Shown here: positions 95 to 52,175 of the stretch, one piece after another
How the letters are laid out: the number at the start of each line of letters is the position of its first letter
How positions within the stretch are numbered: position 1 is the first letter of the stretch
NCBI GenBank assembly: GCA_963843575.1
Contig: CAWJKZ010000024.1
Location: 352,001 to 416,000 of the forward strand
Length of the DNA: 64,000 nt
Source: an uncultured Acidobacteriota bacterium
Lineage (GTDB): Bacteria > Acidobacteriota > UBA6911
Direction: 5' to 3'
Position numbers and translations under genes: made by a program
Notes under the pieces: generated by a model
The model's input: the letters and a program-made list of their open reading frames with translations, nothing else
What the model was told of the DNA's origin: nothing
Databases searched by the model: none

Positions 95-3117
<3,023 letters not shown>

Positions 3118-3204
3118 ATAAAATTTACCCTGCTTGAAACCCCTGGGGGCGCGCGTTGCCCCGCAGGACTTCTTGCCTGATTGAGATTGGCGGTATATCG
3201 GGTT

Positions 3205-3320
<116 letters not shown>

Positions 3321-3332
3321 TTAAATACCAAT

Positions 3333-34604: not shown

Positions 34605-35226
34605 ATGGCAAAGTTGTTTCGCCAAAGATGAAAAATTCTTCAAGATCTTTGCCCAGATGACGTTTCATATACTCGAGGCGGCCGAGATCCTCGGCACCAT
34701 GCTGGCCGACCCGAAGGGCGACATACAGAGCGCCGCGGTCAAAATCAAGGACCTGGAACACAAGGGGGACGAACTGACCCACAAGGTGATCGAGGAGCTG
34801 AACAAGACGTTCATTACCCCGATCGACCGCGAGGATATCCACGATCTGAGTAAGGCGCTGGACGACGTGCTCGACCTCATCGATACGACGGCGGGGCGCA
34901 TCGTGTTGTTCCAGATCCGGGAACCGATTCGGGAGCTTGGCCGAGATGGCGGCGGTGCTGCTGAGCCAGGTGCGGGAGATCTGCGCCGCGGTGACCAAGC
35001 TGCAGGACAACGACCATGTCGTCGAGCGCTGCATCGAAATTAACAGGCTCGAAAACGACGCGGACCGACTGTTTCCAGTCCGCGATCGGTCACCTGTTCC
35101 AGGACGTCAAGGATCCCGATCGATGTGATCAAGCGCAAGGAGATCATCGAGACGCTCGAGACCGCCACCGACAAGGCCGAAGACGTCGCCAACGTGCTGG
35201 AGACGATCATGGTGAAGAACGCCTGA
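34605..35226 (+). CDS. DUF47 / PhoU-like phosphate transport regulator (frameshifted)
   Basis: EHKGD..TFITPIDRED..LDDV; LENDAD; ETATDKAEDVAN. Confidence 0.88.
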
Positions 35227-35316
35227 CTTCGGCTTCGGGCTTCCGCTTTAGGGCTTTTAAAAAACTCACCTCCTCGAAGGCTCGAAGGCCTCTGAGAATC
35301 TCGAAGGCTTCCGCCT

Positions 35317-36318
35317 TCACGAAGAGCGCCTGACCTCGGCTCGCGCCTTGGCTTCCGGCTTCAGGCTCCCGGCTTCCGCTTCGACAAGGTCCTCCGCGAT
35401 CCCGGCGAGGACGTCCCCGTTTTCGACCTCGTCGCGCCACAGCTGCGGCACCGCCTCGAGTCCCGCGAGCGCCCCCACGAAGCTGCCGGCCAGCGCCGCG
35501 ATGGAGTCGGCCGCGTCGCCCGCGTTCACCGCAGCCAGCACCGCGGGGGAGTACTGCCTGGGATGTTTGAGGAAGCAGTACACTGCGGCGGGGATAGCCT
35601 CGAGGGCGTCGTTGCTGGTGCCGATTTCGAACAACCCTTCTTCCACCGGGAGGTGCACGATCTGGGTGATCCAGCGGAGCATGGCGGCCATGTCCTGGTC
35701 GATGCTGGCGATGCGGTCCGCGGTCTCGAGCACCTGGTCTCCGGGAGAGCACCGCTGGGTCGATTGCACCAGCCTCGCCACCAGGTAGGCGACGGCGACC
35801 GAGGCGGCGCGGGCCCTCGGTTCTGTGTGGGTGATGGCGCACTCGTCGAGCGCCGCACGGACGAGGCTGTCGGGCTGGCGCAGGAAGAACAAGCCGATCG
35901 GGGCCATGCGCACGGCGGCCCCGGACCCGCTGCTGAACACGCCGCTCTTGGTCCAGGCGCGCCCGGCGGCGAGGTGCTTGCACGCACGCACGTTCGCGTG
36001 CGTCGGGGTCCGGTGCGGGATCGTGTTGGCGTACCAGGCCAGGAGTGCGTCTGCCTGCCGGGCCGCGTCCATCTTCCCGCACTCGATGAGGCACTCGGCG
36101 GTGGCGAGCATCATCTGGGTGTCGTCCGTGTACGATCCCGCGTTCAGGAAATCGCTGGCGTGGCCCGGGTGGGCCTTGACAAACCCGGATATCGGCTTGT
36201 CGTAGTAGCGGCGTATCTGATCGCGCGTCAGGAACTGGGCCGGCATCCCGAGCGCGTCGCCCACGGCGAAGCCGAGCAGCGTCCCGGCAAAACGGCCGAC
36301 GAGTTCCGTGGAATCCAT
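35317..36318 (-). CDS. ADP-ribosylglycohydrolase (DraG-like)
   Basis: GDALG, YTDDTQM, GSGAAVRMAP, ITH, D.IAALAG. Confidence 0.9.
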   Translation of the reverse strand: MDSTELVGRFAGTLLGFAVGDALGMPAQFLTRDQIRRYYDKPISGFVKAHPGHASDFLNAGSYTDDTQMMLATAECLIECGKMDAARQADALLAWYANTIPHRTPTHANVRACKHLAAGRAWTKSGVFSSGSGAAVRMAPIGLFFLRQPDSLVRAALDECAITHTEPRARAASVAVAYLVARLVQSTQRCSPGDQVLETADRIASIDQDMAAMLRWITQIVHLPVEEGLFEIGTSNDALEAIPAAVYCFLKHPRQYSPAVLAAVNAGDAADSIAALAGSFVGALAGLEAVPQLWRDEVENGDVLAGIAEDLVEAEAGSLKPEAKARAEVRRSS

Positions 36319-44883: not shown

Positions 44884-46494
44884 GTGACCTTGCAGTTTCC
44901 CGTCAGACTAATACCGCCCTTGCTCTCCATCCTGCTGGCTGCGGCATTCGCGCAGGCCGCGGAGCTGCCGGCCGTGGTCCTGCTCGGCGACTCGGCGCGG
45001 CCCGGCTACGCCGACGCCGTCGCGCGGCTCCTTCAGGGCCGGGCCAGGGTGATCGTACCCGAACCTGGCGACGGCGATGGCTGGGCCTCCGGGAAACCCG
45101 CGCTCATTCACTTCCAGATCGGGCCGCCGGGCTCGATTCCCCTGCCCGAGTACGAGTCGAGGCTGCGACGGAACCTCGCGAGGCTGCGGGGGATCCCGGG
45201 CGCCGCCCTGGTGTGCGCCACCTCGCCCCCGGTCGGTGCCGACTCGGAGGTGCGGCGCTATAACGAGGCTGCAGCGCGCATCATCGTGGACGCCGGCGTG
45301 CCGGTGCACGACCTTTACGCGCTGGCGGAAGCACACGGAGCGGCCCGCGACGAGGCCCTGGGCGAGGCGGTTGCGGACTGCGTCGTCCGCCACCTCACGA
45401 TCGCGTCATATCGCCCGCTGCCGGCCGCGCCGTCCGGGCCGGAAGCTGCGAGCGTCTACAGGGAATCCGAGGTGGGTCGCGACGCCCTCGTGCCGGAGTA
45501 CTACAAGCGCATGGAGTTCGGGGAATTCGCGGTGCCGCAGTCGGCTTCTGCATGGGAGGAGAGGAGGCCGTCGGTCCTCAAATCGGTGCTCGAATCCCTC
45601 GGCGACCTGCCGCCGCGGCCGGCGCCGGTGCGGGCGCGAGTGGTCTCCGTCGAGCTGCGGCGGGATTTCCGCCTGGAAAAGGTGCGGATCGGCAACGGCG
45701 GGGAAGGCGAAATTTCGTCGCTTCTGCTGATCCCGAACAAGCTCGCGGGGCCAGCCCCAGCCGTCCTGTGGCTGCACTCGTCGACCCCGGACCACACCCA
45801 GATCATCATCCCCGGTACCAACGGCGGCGAGGAATCGCTCGGCGAAGCGTTTCTCCGAGCGGGCTACGTGGTTCTCTCCCCCGACGCCTTCTGGCATGGC
45901 GACCGGGTCGGCACCGGGCCGGCGGGGAAGTCCGAGACCGGTAGGGACGAGCAGGAAAGCCTTTTCAAGCTGCACCTCTGGCTGGGCCGCACGCTCTGGG
46001 GCATGTTCGTGCGCGACGATCAGGTGGCGTTGGACTACCTGGTCAGCCGGCCTGAAGTGGACCGGTCGCGCATCGGGACGACGGGCATGAGCATGGGGAG
46101 CACGCGTGCGTGGTGGCTGGCCGCCGTCGACGACCGCATCGCGGCCGCCGTGGGGGTTGCCTGCTTCACCCGGTACCAGAACCTGATCGCCCACGGCCAG
46201 CTGCGGCAGCACGGCGTGTACTACTTCACCGACGGACTGCTGCGTCACTTCGACACGGAAGGGGTCCTGGCCCTCATCGCGCCCCGGCCGTTCCTCGCCT
46301 TGACCGGCGACCTTGACGCGGGTTCTCCCGTCGACGGCATCCGCGTCCTCGAGGATCGGGTTGGGCGCACGTACGGCGCGCTCGGCGCGCGCGAGCGCTT
46401 CCGGAGCGTCGTCTACCCGGAGCTGGGGCATTCCTTCACCCCGGCGATGCGGGCCGAGCTGCTGGCGTGGTTTGACCGCTGGCTGAGGCGATGA
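44884..46494 (+). CDS. secreted fusion of an SGNH-like domain and an alpha/beta hydrolase (DLH/esterase)
   Basis: LLGDS N-terminal block; GMSMG nucleophile elbow; C-terminal D..H. Confidence 0.75.
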   Translation: MTLQFPVRLIPPLLSILLAAAFAQAAELPAVVLLGDSARPGYADAVARLLQGRARVIVPEPGDGDGWASGKPALIHFQIGPPGSIPLPEYESRLRRNLARLRGIPGAALVCATSPPVGADSEVRRYNEAAARIIVDAGVPVHDLYALAEAHGAARDEALGEAVADCVVRHLTIASYRPLPAAPSGPEAASVYRESEVGRDALVPEYYKRMEFGEFAVPQSASAWEERRPSVLKSVLESLGDLPPRPAPVRARVVSVELRRDFRLEKVRIGNGGEGEISSLLLIPNKLAGPAPAVLWLHSSTPDHTQIIIPGTNGGEESLGEAFLRAGYVVLSPDAFWHGDRVGTGPAGKSETGRDEQESLFKLHLWLGRTLWGMFVRDDQVALDYLVSRPEVDRSRIGTTGMSMGSTRAWWLAAVDDRIAAAVGVACFTRYQNLIAHGQLRQHGVYYFTDGLLRHFDTEGVLALIAPRPFLALTGDLDAGSPVDGIRVLEDRVGRTYGALGARERFRSVVYPELGHSFTPAMRAELLAWFDRWLRR

Positions 46495-46539
46495 TTTTTC
46501 TGGTGGTAGGGAGTTGTGAAGTGAGTTCGGGAAAAAGAA

Positions 46540-46772
46540 ATGGTCGCTGTTGATCCCGTTTCCTTGACCCGATGCTTTCGGAATCCTCTCACCCGTTGCC
46601 CGGGTTCGAGTTTGGGTCGGCGGGAGCTACCCTTTGCCGGAGCTTTCTTCCGGCAATCCCGGCCGGCTTCGACGCCTGCCGGTTCCGACCTCCTAGTGCA
46701 ACGAACAAACCTGTTAAGCCCGTCCGTCGCCCTTCAACCGGTGTTCAAGGTCACGCAAATCACAGCGACCAT
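46540..46772 (-). ncRNA. ~233-nt structured ncRNA (possibly a divergent 6S RNA, otherwise an unclassified motif)
   Basis: 5' AUGGUCGCUGU pairs with 3' ACAGCGACCAU, extended by GAUUU-CGU/ACGGGAUC and CCUUGA/UCAAGG; G-U pairs form only on the minus strand; upstream promoter; U-rich tail. Confidence 0.75.
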
Positions 46773-46776
46773 GCTC

Positions 46777-46805
46777 ATAATGCCCCTGCGGCGCGAAACC
46801 GTCAA
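46777..46805 (-). promoter_or_regulatory. sigma70 promoter of the ncRNA
   Basis: TTGACG-17 bp-CATTAT, predicted start ~46770-46772. Confidence 0.75.
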
Positions 46806-46826
46806 CAGCATTTCTTTCAGCAAAAG

Positions 46827-46851
46827 TTATCCACAGGATATGTGTGGCTAA
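46827..46851. promoter_or_regulatory. pair of DnaA-box-like sites
   Basis: Perfect TTATCCACA (46827-46835) and an inverted 1-mismatch copy TGTGGCTAA (46843-46851). Confidence 0.5.
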
Positions 46852-46922
46852 TATCGAGAGATCGGGACCCGGGCCCCAGCGCCTGAGTTTCCATTCCGGG
46901 AAACTCCAGAATTTCACGTTAA

Positions 46923-47080
46923 TCTGGAGTGCGGCGCCTCGGCGCGCTTTGGTGATGGCGCCTCGGCGCCACATCCAGGCAACTCGCTGAGGCATCGGGC
47001 ATTCCGGCCGCAGGAACAGGCGGCGTCGAGCCGCCGCACTCCGCAATCAATCGTCGGACAGCCTCTCCGGCTCGGACCTG
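46923..47080. repeat. REP-like element (TGGAGTGCGGCG family)
   Basis: TCTGGAGTGCGGCGCCTCGGCGC ... GCGGCGTCGAGCCGCCGCACTCC, with tail similar to the 3424-3536 copy. Confidence 0.75.
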
Positions 47081-47139
47081 CTGGAATTTTCGGGCAAGGT
47101 AAGGGGCTCCATCCAGCCCGATCCGGATGGTGGATTTGC

Positions 47140-47179: not shown

Positions 47180-47256
<77 letters not shown>

Positions 47257-47295
47257 ACGGATTCATAAAGCACAACGTCATAAAGCTAATATCCA

Positions 47296-47326
47296 CAGGG
47301 GGCTGCGAAGTCCCCTGATTTGTTTT
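47296..47326 (+). terminator. terminator after the tRNA
   Basis: CAGGGGGC/GTCCCCTG stem followed by ATTTGTTTT. Confidence 0.6.
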
Positions 47327-49586: not shown

Positions 49587-52175
49587 TCGTCGTCCTCGTT
49601 CTGCTCGATCGGGGGAACCGTCAGACCCAGTAGATCGCAGAGTTTTTTTTGGACATCGATGATGATTTCGGCCTGCCTGAGCCGTTTTTGCAGGCGTTGG
49701 TTTTCCCGCGTCAGACGATGCACTTCACCGGCCAGCGGATTCCGCGGAACCGGCTTCTTGCCGCGCTTACGCGGCTCCAGGCCGGCGATCTCGCCCGTCT
49801 CCCGCTGCTTGCGCCAGGTGGTCAGGTGCGACGAATACAGGCCCTCACGCCGCAAGAGCGCCGGCAATCCCTCCGGACCCACCCTCGTCGGCTTCCTGCA
49901 GAATGCGACGCTTGTATGCTGCGGTGAATTGCCGTCGGACAGCCTTTGAGTCAACTTCGGGATCAGGGGCAGCCGGACCCGGGTCCGCGGGCGCCGCCCC
50001 GAGTATGGTTGCTCCTCCGCTATCGGGTAGGCGCCCGGGTCACGCCGAGCACCTCCCACGGAACCGTACGTGCGCTGTTCGCATACGGCTCTTCGGGATG
50101 GCGGGTTATTACCCCCGTCACCGGCCGGTTCACGACCTCGTGGTTCCCAGCGGCAGCCCAAGCTGCGCCGGGGCGTTGATGGTCGCCCAGATCTACCGGA
50201 ACCGTTCCAGAAGTGATACGAGCCCCCGTTCGGCGAAATACGCGTTGCGGAGTCCCCGATCTACTGCCGGATTGTGGCTCAACGCCCAGATGGACTGACG
50301 CCCCTCATAGATGCGTTGCCACGCCGTTTTCCGTCTAGATTCCAAGCCGAATGAGGCGTCGGGCGATCGTTCGCTTCGTCTTCCAGTGCTTCAGCACGAT
50401 CGCGCGCAAACGTCGCCGAATGTGCGCGTCCGCCTCTGGATACTCGCTCGATCCCCGGCGTGCAGACCCGGAAATGCCCAAGCCATCCTTGCAGGTACGC
50501 GTTGACCTCGGGATGGTCGCTTCAAGCGACTGCCCCCGAGATCGCGGCGTAAGCTCATGGATGCGCTCACGAAGCCGCTTTTCGCTGCGCTCTGACAGCA
50601 GAACCTCGACCAGGCCGCCTTCTACTGGCTGCAGCCGATATCCGAGGAAATGCCGTGTCTCCGGTCGGGCCACTGCGCTCTTGCTCTCATTCACCTTCAG
50701 GCGTAGTCGCCGGTTGATGAACGAGGTCACGCTTGCCATGACCCTTTGCCCCGCACGCTCGCTCCGGACGTAGATGTTGCAATCATCCGCGTACCGGACA
50801 AACCGATGCCCGCGCCGCGCCAGCTCCTCGTCGAGTTCGCTCAGCACGATGTTCGAGAGCAACGGAGAAAGCGGACCACCTTGCGGCACCCCTTCTTCCG
50901 TGCTCACCTTCACGCCGTCCGGCATTACCACTTTGGCCTTGAGCATCCGCCCGATTAGAGCCAGAGAGCCGCTTGTCGTCGAGCCGCTGTGCAAGCCGCC
51001 CCATCAAGCGCTGATGATGAACTCGATCGAAGAATTTCTCCAGATCCAAGTCCACCACCCAGTCGTGTGCCCTTCTCTACGTAGCTCCGTGCCTCCGCAA
51101 TCGCCGTCTGGCAGCTCCGGTTTGGACGAAACCCGTGGCTCGATTCATGGAACGTTGGCTCATACACCGGTTCAAGTACCAGCCGTACCGCCTCCTGTAC
51201 CATTCGATCGACCACGTTCGGAATCCCCAGCCCGCGCTGTCCGCCTCCCGCTTTCGGTATCCACACGCGCCGGATATCTCCGGGACGGTAGCTCCCATCC
51301 AGCAAGGAAGCGCGCAGCTCCGGCAATAGCTCTTGCAGGTGCTCGCGCACTTACTCAATGCTCTGCCGGTCCGGCCCGGGCGCTCCTTGATTCGCCGCCA
51401 CTTTCTCGAACGCCTCTTCGAGACGTTCGACTACCTCTTCCATCCTCGCAGGTCCGACTCTCTTCGGCTTGCTCTTCGTCTTCCGCACCTTCTGCAGTCG
51501 CGATGTGGATCGGTCCCTATCTCGTCTGCCCTCGGCTCCGCGTTGCCGCGGATTTTCGGCGGTCACGAAGTTCAGCGTCTGTTGTCGTTCCTCTTCCTTG
51601 ACCGGGACCGCTTTCCCTCCCCCGGACATACGAGTGTTCCGAGTTTGGCCCCGGTTTCCCGGCGCTTTTGGTACTATGCGGTCCTCTGACTTCTGCTGGG
51701 CCATTGGTTTTCGTCTTTCGTCCTACGACCTACCGCTTTCGCGGAACCCAGCAGATCTCGCTGGGTAATGCCAAGAGATTTTGCAGCCATCTCGTCGCCC
51801 ATACGCACGTGACTCCAACGAATATCGGGATTTTGTCGCTGCGAGCCGACTTACCCACCACGCACGCCTCACGGCGCTTCGCTTTCGCTCGAAACGCTCG
51901 CACACCTACGGCTTCTTCTGGACACCCCCTCGCGGGTCCTCCGGAAACCCTTGTCAGGTGTCCGGTTCGACTTGGTACTCCAAGCCAGTGCTCTTGCCTC
52001 ATCGGTGTCGGATTCCCTTCGTTAGGGCTCCGGGACAGGACTTGCGCCTTGCTGGCGCTCACCTCCGATCTCCTGGCCATGCCAGTCACACCCGTTCCGG
52101 CTCGCTACGCTCGCCTTCACTCCGCTTCGGAGCAACCATACCCGTCACTCCTTTCATCATTCCTGTCATTACCAT
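49583..52175 (-). CDS. IS3 OrfA split by the intron (exons 52175-52092 and 50021-49583; one further indel near 49860)
   Basis: Joined exons read MVMTGMMKGVTGMVAPKRSEGERSEPER|SGGATILG..PDPEVDSKAVRRQFTAAYKRRIL..LLRREGLYSSHL. Confidence 0.8.
50022..52091 (-). mobile_element. group II intron (IIC-like), 2070 nt
   Basis: 5' GTGTGACTGGC; short domain V GAGCCGTATGCG-AACAG-CGCACGTACGGTTC; domain VI ending ACCCGAT; internal RT ORF. Confidence 0.9.
50130..51445 (-). CDS. ltrA: group II intron reverse transcriptase/maturase (frameshifted, no endonuclease domain seen; ends approximate)
   Basis: GAPGPD, IPK..G.R.LGIP..DR, SHGFRP, DLEKFFD, GVPQGGPLSPLL, RYADD. Confidence 0.9.

Follow-up and report, generated by a model that had tools for sequence, protein, structure and literature searches.

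A 64,000-nucleotide stretch (hereafter, the window) of contig CAWJKZ010000024.1 from an uncultured Acidobacteriota bacterium carries, on its minus strand at 46772-46539, an element that was confirmed to be a stand-alone gene for a structured non-coding RNA (ncRNA) of ~234 nucleotides (nt), with its own promoter and terminator. It is a new RNA family: it belongs to none of the families in Rfam 15 and, by its defining features, lies outside 6S RNA, the CsrB/Rsm RNAs, Y RNA and riboswitch leaders. That the family is real, transcribed and structured is almost certain. The gene was further shown to be linked to no one neighbour and to exist as paralogues with two kinds of promoter.

The RNA gene and its transcript

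The limits of the gene were set by a promoter scan and by contigs from RNA libraries, as follows.

46539-46772, minus strand: ncRNA gene of ~234 nt, its 5′ end placed by the promoter and its 3′ end by an A-tailed contig
46805-46800, minus strand: -35 hexamer TTGACG, from the promoter scan
46782-46777, minus strand: -10 hexamer CATTAT, 17 bp past the -35 hexamer, with the start site (+1) placed at ~46772-46770

Two promoter-like sites were found in a 1-kb stretch where 0.2 are expected. Six bases after the -10 hexamer begins AUGGUCGCUGU (46772-46762), which forms an 11-bp perfect terminal pairing with ACAGCGACCAU (46550-46540); UUUCUUUUU directly follows the latter, and a U-rich tail occupies 46540-46532. 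The 3′ strand of this closing helix (P1) and the U tract form an intrinsic terminator, which a simple terminator scan misses because such a scan needs a loop of 3-8 nt and the P1 helix encloses ~200 nt. The same layout recurs among the copies of the RNA. In each of the 30 distinct genome copies examined, the first helix is preceded at -35 to -37 by a hexamer of the TTGAC type (or, in a few of them, TTGCA), TTGACN or TTGCAN stands at the -35 position in all 75 scored copies, and many other copies, as read from their sequences, have an extended -10 element, TGnCAAATT, after 17 bp where CATTAT stands in the window. As the -35 and -10 hexamers keep a fixed distance from the helix, +1 falls on the start of P1. 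Runs of T follow the P1 3′ strand in the aligned copies, and the marks of a stand-alone bacterial RNA gene, that is, -35 and -10 hexamers at a fixed distance and a GC-rich 3′ helix followed by a U tract, are both found.

Folding of the 241-nt minus-strand stretch gave a minimum free energy (MFE) of -118 kcal/mol, which 0 of 200 shuffles equalled (-85.4 +/- 4.9; z -6.7), versus an MFE of -96.4 (z -4.7) for the plus strand. In the MFE and consensus folds alike, the RNA is a four-way junction with three inner arms and no central bubble, and internal loops in the closing helices are at most 4 nt. Its parts, with the base pairs changed on both sides among the copies, are listed below.

46758-46772, minus strand: P1, 5′ strand of the closing helix; 7 of 13 helix-1 pairs changed on both sides, 97.2% of cells paired
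46540-46554, minus strand: P1, 3′ strand; with the U tract at 46540-46532, the intrinsic terminator
CCUUGA/UCAAGG, minus strand: second helix, read from the sequence
46738-46750, minus strand: P2, 5′ strand, CCUUGAACACCGG, with two conserved bulged A; 8 of 12 pairs of helix 3 changed on both sides
46562-46571, minus strand: P2, 3′ strand, CGGGUCAAGG, from the alignment and consensus fold
46698-46730, minus strand: hairpin A, GCGACGGACGGGC-UUAACAG-GUUUGUUCGUUGC, G.U-rich with near-invariant tandem G.U pairs; the most conserved part of the RNA
46691-46696, minus strand: single-stranded linker CUAGGA; columns C80, U81, A82, G83 and G84 invariant or near-invariant
46615-46690, minus strand: domain B, a GGUCGG/CCGACC stem (46690-46685 with 46620-46615) around hairpins B1 and B2, plus linker GGUAGC
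46682-46659, minus strand: hairpin B1, of variable loop length
46656-46634, minus strand: hairpin B2, inside domain B
46586-46610, minus strand: hairpin C, CUCGAACCCG-GGCAA-CGGGUGAGAG; 7 of 8 pairs of helices 9 and 10 changed on both sides
46573-46583, minus strand: conserved segment UUCCGAAAGCA with a GAAA motif; columns C195, C196, G197 and A198-A200 near-invariant

In domain B, double-sided changes affect 5 of 6 pairs of helix 5, 7 of 8 pairs of helices 6 and 7 and 9 of 9 pairs of helix 8. The G.U pairs of hairpin A, however varied the sequences around them, stay G.U in 29-31 of 31 distinct sequences, and the hairpin is kept in altered but recognisable form in the distant homologues L066-L068 of genus g2, two of which (L066 and L067) have hairpin C reduced or missing. 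The UUCCGAAAGCA segment is unpaired in RNAalifold, and no supported pairing was found for it, by mutual information included.

The fold rests on an alignment of 21 full-length copies (two 3′-truncated copies and one cut by a contig end were left out, and L013 was added), for which RNAalifold gave 71 pairs; double changes that compensate each other occur in 30 of these. With 31 distinct sequences, 96.3% of the cells were paired and 44 of the 71 pairs showed double changes; with 89, the values were 95.9% and 49. In neither set did any of 500 column shuffles reach the observed pairing, and sliding the partners by 1-3 columns left 27-48% paired and 8-27 double-change pairs over both sets (29-48% and 13-27, respectively, in the 89-sequence set). 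Part of the sequences came from a pattern scan (below) that picked them by hairpin A, so that the invariance of this hairpin in the large alignment is partly by construction, and it is near-invariant in the BLAST-derived set as well. Mutual information, computed on 72 of the 89 distinct rows after those with >140 gaps were dropped, returned mostly predicted pairs at the top and no convincing pseudoknot or tertiary pair beyond the predicted helices; left over were one additional pair (columns 106-159) and an unusual 95-307 signal. A covariance model of the RNA (R1) matches the window at 46523-46775 (minus strand; 260.8 bits), and the conserved core in BLAST (query 90-332) corresponds to 46771-46529.

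An independently transcribed, multibranched ncRNA of ~233 nt read from the minus strand had been proposed in a preliminary description of this locus, and the present data support it. All the sequence features that it listed are present on that strand: the TTGACG-17-CATTAT promoter with +1 at the closing helix, the 11-bp terminal pairing extended by CCUUGA/UCAAGG and its U-rich tail, the GU-rich hairpin, the GGUCGG/CCGACC stem with two hairpins, and CCCG-GGCAA-CGGG. Its remark that the wobble pairs work on one strand agrees with the two z values, and the Acidobacteriota homologues gathered here bear out the proposal by their covariation (49 of 71 pairs doubly compensated in 89 sequences). It was also right to see no credible open reading frame (ORF). 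A 103-amino-acid (aa) ATG ORF does lie on the plus strand over the RNA gene, at exactly the limits (46540-46851) that the description had given, and stop-free frames are common in the copies. Even so, the probability that there is no RNA gene here, and that the locus is this ORF or a DNA-level repeat, is practically nil: of 21 copies, 11 have a spacing of 0 mod 3 between two invariant anchors and 10 a spacing of 1 mod 3, so the frame is not kept between copies, the helices change in a compensatory way and the G.U pairs fit one strand only. The ORF is an artefact of GC-rich sequence and would make a false gene call.

The element is represented in RNA libraries. A run index holds 20 runs from 13 studies with part of a 441-nt stretch around the element; RNA is recorded for 15 of the 20, and these hold 31-40% of the sampled words (word shares of X4, X5 and X8-X20 are 0.31-0.38, as listed). 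The runs are kept as contigs, which give neither expression levels nor 5′ ends. Contig comparison over 46300-47100 covered four RNA runs (X2, X3, X6 and X7) from four studies, each of which has a contig identical to the window over the following positions.

46547-46738: zero-difference contig, RNA run X2
46539-46720: zero-difference contig, RNA run X3
46554-46727: zero-difference contig, RNA run X6
46545-46672: zero-difference contig, RNA run X7

In the X3 contig, 46539 is preceded on the plus strand by 22 non-templated T, which on the minus strand is an A-tail after ...GCGACCAUU (...ACCAUU), two U past the closing helix; this tail fixes the strand and the 3′ end of the RNA. Many more contigs, of 88-99% likeness, stack on the conserved hairpin, and depth in X7 rises to about 141,700 over hairpin A, a value summed over contigs of many relatives and not a measure of expression. 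At the flanks (46300-46515 and 46786-47100), X2, X3 and X6 lack contigs altogether and X7 does not exceed a depth of 2.4, empty cover that carries no evidential weight.

Known RNA families

Among the 4227 models of Rfam 15, only 23S and 5S rRNA, one tRNA and a group II intron reach the gathering score in the window, none of them on the element. At E<=10, the region 46400-47000 gives chance-level matches only, and the lone one within the RNA is an archaeal snoRNA model (10.1 bits, chance) over 46732-46785. No description of the RNA turned up in full-text literature searches, as far as the listings and abstracts that they returned go. The preliminary description had left two alternatives, an unusually expanded 6S RNA or an undescribed ncRNA. 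The comparison with Rfam, which took in the 6S model RF00013 and all other families, found none matching the element, and it is the second alternative that stands: RF00013 has no match even at E<=10, the fold is a branched four-way junction without the central bubble, and a canonical 6S RNA is encoded elsewhere in the window's own genome (G000:C14:427434-427617; 71.3 bits against a cut-off of 46.4). As the signal recognition particle (SRP) RNA, RNase P RNA and transfer-messenger RNA (tmRNA) genes were found elsewhere in that genome as well, the element is not a diverged copy of any of the four.

The same data bear on whether the RNA might be a second, branched 6S paralogue or an Ms1-like binder of RNA polymerase. 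Some bacteria have two 6S RNAs, and a long closing helix made from both ends and a presence in many RNA libraries would suit such a molecule. This is nevertheless very unlikely given the unmatched RF00013, the missing bubble and the canonical 6S RNA, and the RNA is also missing from many members of the family. A bacterial Y RNA (YrlA) in a Ro ribonucleoprotein was rejected: no match to Ro60/Rsr (TROVE) was found in the own genome (88% complete), and no Y-RNA or tRNA-like Rfam model matches the element.

A sponge for CsrA of the CsrB/RsmZ type, which would hold many GGA motifs, was likewise rejected and is to be regarded as very improbable. The own genome encodes CsrA, as do 16 of 19 RNA-positive versus 17 of 32 RNA-negative genomes, the RNA comes as multi-copy paralogues, and a 6-N6-6 palindrome upstream of many copies resembles the GacA box. 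However, GGA is not enriched in the window copy (8, versus 6.2 +/- 2.0 in shuffles, 26% of which are at least as high), and of a mean of 7.9 GGA per copy, 0.24 on average are contained entirely in a hairpin loop. Nor is co-occurrence with csrA strict: G043 (100% complete) has two copies of the RNA and no CsrA match, and 17 genomes have CsrA without the RNA.

Copies, promoter classes and genomic context

The own genome (6.68 Mb) holds three copies: that of the window and those at C15:204537-204859 and C18:145371-145608, each 79% identical. A BLAST search of this genome plus 40 relatives matched 15 of the 41, often with 2-3 copies each, and R1 found the RNA in 19 of 51 family genomes representing 8 of 11 genera, with three weak full-length matches (60-70 bits) in genus g2; the order-level search covered the same 51 genomes. 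Scanning for exact matches to a degenerate 26-mer taken from hairpin A yielded 21 loci in 12 metagenome-assembled genomes (MAGs) of the GTDB species set, each with Acidobacteriota, Acidobacteria or Terriglobia in its title, in addition to 75 loci in metagenome contigs and one on a 1268-nt IMG/VR contig that is too short to judge. Under stricter Infernal filters, the RNA was found in 0 of 86 other genomes of the class sample and, with a core model (R2), in 0 of 149 other genomes of the phylum sample; re-scanning genus g2 with R2 and laxer filters returned the same 3 of 30 genomes, plus one marginal match at E 0.07. As to a mobile origin, collections of phages and plasmids returned no match.

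At least 160 nt of upstream sequence are available for 75 of the 93 distinct copies, and the class counts rest on these. Both a palindrome and a GATATC element occur at fixed spacing in 52 of them, neither in 21 and the palindrome only in two. There are thus two promoter classes, plain and regulated, and the window copy is of the regulated class; TTGACG is the -35 hexamer in 31 of the 52 copies with both elements, and TTGACA in 16 of the 21 plain ones. The two elements of the window copy are as follows.

46886-46905, minus strand: palindrome AGTTTCC-CGGAAT-GGAAACT (consensus AGTTTCC-N6-GGAAACT), present in 52 of 75 copies with constant spacing to the GATATC element
46826-46842, minus strand: upstream element CATATCCTGTGGATAAC, containing TGTGGATAA at 46835-46827 (TTATCCACA on the plus strand)

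The palindrome is presumed to be the site of a dimeric regulator. It is unique to RNA loci: GTTTCC-N6-GGAAAC is present at two of the three in the 6.68-Mb genome and nowhere else. No regulon could be derived from the upstream motifs. The other element, GATATC(C/T)TGTG-GAWAA (consensus GATATCCTGTGGAaAA), lies at -71 to -74 in the 52 copies, some of which have the GATATC unit duplicated at an 11-bp period and the palindrome shifted equally. One further ATATCCTGTGG site, apparently intragenic, lies at C21:363453.

Within this element, a possible link to DnaA was weighed. The E. coli consensus of the DnaA box is TTWTNCACA. A perfect word, TTATCCACA, lies at 46827-46835 (plus strand), 21 bp upstream of the -35 hexamer; a second box, TTAGCCACA at 46851-46843 (minus strand), deviates from the consensus at one position and is not shared by the other copies. 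Of the pair of DnaA boxes noted in the preliminary description, one therefore stands and its partner is specific to the window copy. The 9-mer keeps a constant position and agrees with the reverse complement of TTWTNCACA in 43 of the 52 regulated promoters, its variants being TGTGGAAAA (31 copies), TGTGGATAA (7), TGTGCATAA (4) and a few others. The own genome has 93 TTWTNCACA words, five of them within 1.8 kb around dnaA on contig C13, and CCTGTGGAAAT stands just upstream of dnaA. As the same word variants cluster at dnaA, the DnaA boxes of this lineage look like the promoter word. The segment G000:C13:638216-639966, which holds the five words and CCTGTGGAAAT, is the probable dnaA promoter and oriC region. 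A further CCTGTGGATA word lies at 47290-47299 of the window (minus strand; G000:C24:399290-399299), between a tRNA-Met gene and an integrase gene.

Control of the regulated promoters by DnaA is plausible on these motif matches, and it is possible, if rather doubtful, that DnaA itself binds the upstream element. Several findings count against it: the conserved element runs 7 bp (GATATCC) beyond the 9-mer, more than one box would account for; the frequency of CCTGTGGAWA in the genome is not below chance (20 seen, about 17 expected); the second box of the window lacks conservation; and among the three copies of the own genome, only that of the window strictly fits TTWTNCACA. The replication-linked control hinted at earlier is thus backed by a conserved 9-mer, and weakened by an element longer than the box and a word that is not rare. 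A site of direct repeats at 11 bp would also suit a winged-helix response regulator.

According to the tree of copies, the paralogue lineages had already separated when the window's species and its sister split; the plain-class copies of genus g10 group in a single clade. Each regulated-class copy has neighbours unrelated to those of the others. The gene downstream of the window copy is convergent and encodes a DLH-family hydrolase (44884-46494, plus strand); a tRNA-Met gene and an integrase gene are 400 bp away from the RNA. Between prmA and the gene for NYN_YacP sit the plain-class copies and the three copies of genus g2. A copy lies within 3.5 kb of NYN_YacP in 10 genomes, in four directly upstream and co-directional (at 34-200 nt) and in two divergent and adjacent, so that the prmA/NYN_YacP copy occurs in both orientations. 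In relatives without the RNA, prmA and NYN_YacP abut or have other sequence between them, and no hidden copy was found in their prmA/NYN_YacP spacers.

That the RNA might be a cis-acting leader or attenuator, in the manner of a riboswitch, gains some colour from the four co-directional copies upstream of NYN_YacP and from the complex, conserved, aptamer-like core. It is, however, extremely unlikely, and was rejected: no same-strand downstream gene is conserved, most downstream genes being unrelated or, as in the window, convergent; the terminator is the closing helix of the whole fold, with no alternative pairing evident; and the contigs from RNA libraries end at the terminator, one of them A-tailed. 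The same neighbourhood could point to a role tied to the ribosome or to RNA decay, with the RNA as substrate, cofactor or decoy of a nuclease of the YacP/Rae1 type or linked to L11 methylation. YacP is Rae1, a ribosome-dependent nuclease of Bacillus. The ancestral position between prmA and NYN_YacP and the 10 genomes with a nearby copy favour such a link, but it is quite improbable, as 39 of 51 genomes have NYN_YacP whether or not they carry the RNA, prmA and NYN_YacP abut in relatives that lack it, its orientation is unfixed, the window copy and most other regulated copies lie elsewhere, and the own genome (88% complete) has no NYN_YacP match.

Several loci around the copies are worth recording. 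Two copies in one genome, 4.9 kb apart (L021 and L010; G017:C116:30271-30585 and 35140-35492), keep the regulated promoter and the first ~180 nt, break after CCCGGGCAACG in the hairpin-C loop and continue into unrelated sequence; no matching 3′ fragment was found elsewhere in G017, and they could mark a recombination site or be decaying pseudogenes. More truncated or chimeric copies (L083, L150, L097, L102, L107 and L133) lie on metagenome or IMG/VR contigs, with L083 and L150 both ending after GAAAGGGTCGG. In genus g6 (L184:1921-2375 and L190:945-1412), the prmA/NYN_YacP spacer holds, instead of the RNA, a conserved ~100-aa ORF that starts ATGTCCGA.../ATGCCCGA... and is similar in both genomes. 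Beyond the RNA in the window, a tRNA-Met(CAT) gene (47180-47256, plus strand) is directly followed by a phage-type integrase ORF (PF00589; 47338-48246, minus strand) and, about 2-4 kb past the integrase, by group II intron domains (50022-50093 and 51770-51939, minus strand), a region that looks like an element integrated at a tRNA gene. The window starts with 23S (95-3119) and 5S (3205-3321) rRNA genes, both on the plus strand.

Proposed role and comparison with known systems

The differing neighbours, the convergent gene in the window and the two orientations at prmA/NYN_YacP point to an action in trans rather than as a leader. Our tentative preference, at close to even chances, is that the RNA is a stable trans-acting regulator that binds protein, rather than a base-pairing small RNA (sRNA) or something else. 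Protein binding is suggested by the closed, end-paired fold, the near-invariant bulges and G.U pairs and the lack of long genomic complementarity. Proteins typically recognise features such as those that are invariant here: the two bulged A of P2, a G.U run that never turns into G-C, the linker CUAGG and the loops GGCAA and GAAA. The peripheral hairpins B1 and B2, in contrast, vary freely.

The main competitor is an sRNA that pairs with mRNAs through CUAGGA and the UUAACAG loop, the remaining fold serving stability. A stand-alone gene with an intrinsic terminator and U tail, a conserved linker and multi-copy paralogues with regulated promoters, as known from several sRNA families, would all fit. 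It is still unlikely: nearly all of the 234 nt are locked in covarying helices, no Hfq gene was found in the own genome (88% complete), the AGGAGG-like part of the linker varies between copies, and a blastn-short search of the RNA against its own genome returned nothing but chance-level matches of 13-17 nt, most of which fall in the variable GC-rich part.

Transcription starts from a sigma-70-type promoter at the first base of the long closing helix and ends at the 3′ strand of that helix and the U tract, giving a closed molecule of ~234 nt, whose conserved core (P2 with its bulged A, hairpin A, the CUAGG linker and hairpin C) carries the variable peripheral domain B. If the RNA does act on a protein, the following course may be envisaged. 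It would act in trans by binding, and probably sequestering or scaffolding, this protein. The plain-promoter paralogue would set a basal level of the RNA, which paralogues of the window type would raise in response to a signal. Two DNA-binding factors would read this signal, the first binding the AGTTTCC-N6-GGAAACT palindrome and the second, possibly DnaA, the GATATCC-TGTGGAWAA element.

A number of observations weigh against a protein-binding regulator of this kind. No partner protein was identified, and the named candidates, CsrA and RNA polymerase, fare poorly; no protein gene is consistently adjacent to the RNA; and the conserved single-stranded CUAGGA and the UUAACAG loop could equally be base-pairing seeds. 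Searches of genera g3, g7 and g9 (genomes 96-98% complete) and of 27 of the 30 g2 genomes gave no copy of the RNA, a patchy distribution from which it is dispensable, and 7 of 83 copies are truncated, so that some loci are decaying. Contigs cannot measure expression, and RNA libraries can contain DNA.

A bolder version would make the RNA a new class of abundant ribonucleoprotein RNA in Acidobacteriota, whose inducible paralogues are switched on or off by DnaA and a second, dimeric regulator, so that its level reports the state of replication or growth and it sequesters a global protein. We regard this as decidedly unlikely; if true, the role would be analogous to that of 6S RNA, with an unrelated fold, partner and control logic. 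Very strong covariation, a conserved core, several paralogues per genome with two promoter types and recovery from the RNA libraries of many studies and habitats are traits usual for RNAs with a central role. Acidobacteriota are among the most abundant bacteria of soils and sediments, most of this family is uncultured and RNA-based regulation in them is almost unknown, so the RNA and its two upstream elements offer a testable way into a regulatory circuit of a poorly understood phylum. Its interest thus lies in the strength of the evidence, the promoter dichotomy, the possible DnaA link and the occurrence in a large, little-studied phylum, and its addition to family databases would prevent the spurious 103-aa ORF from being annotated as a gene.

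The general kind to which the RNA belongs, the abundant orphan structured ncRNA, is already familiar. The IMES, raiA and OLE RNAs are orphan structured RNAs from the environment, and families of this kind are in Rfam. Like them, the RNA is defined by covariation, has no known function and belongs with RNAs that are conspicuous in metatranscriptomes or highly expressed; unlike them, it matches no model, and it is confined, among the genomes searched, to one family of Acidobacteriota, with paralogues of two promoter classes. With CsrB/CsrC and RsmX/Y/Z, it shares several paralogues per genome, a trans action, the lack of a fixed neighbour and an upstream 6-N6-6 palindrome, the architecture of the GacA box; in contrast to these, GGA is not enriched and almost never stands in hairpin loops, the link to CsrA is imperfect, and the core is far more conserved and compact. 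GlmY and GlmZ are homologous, paralogous RNAs of ~200 nt whose promoters have upstream activator sites and which act by protein sequestration. The present RNA resembles them in its ~200-nt paralogues, in the upstream sites of its promoters and, if the proposed role is right, in sequestering a protein, but it has no sequence or Rfam relation to them, no sigma-54 promoter features are evident, and the host phylum is another.

Should the DnaA reading be right, transcription tied to a master regulator of replication or the cell cycle would also recall CcnA of Caulobacter (PMC8959179); CcnA is a base-pairing RNA under CtrA, whereas the tie to DnaA here is a motif match only. The likeness to 6S RNA (SsrS; RF00013) is that of a stand-alone, stable RNA whose two ends pair into a long closing helix and which is readily recovered from RNA libraries. 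6S RNA, however, is a rod with a central bubble, whereas the RNA described here is a four-way junction, ~50 nt longer and without a match to the model, and it is multi-copy, patchily distributed and encoded in a genome that already has a canonical 6S RNA elsewhere.

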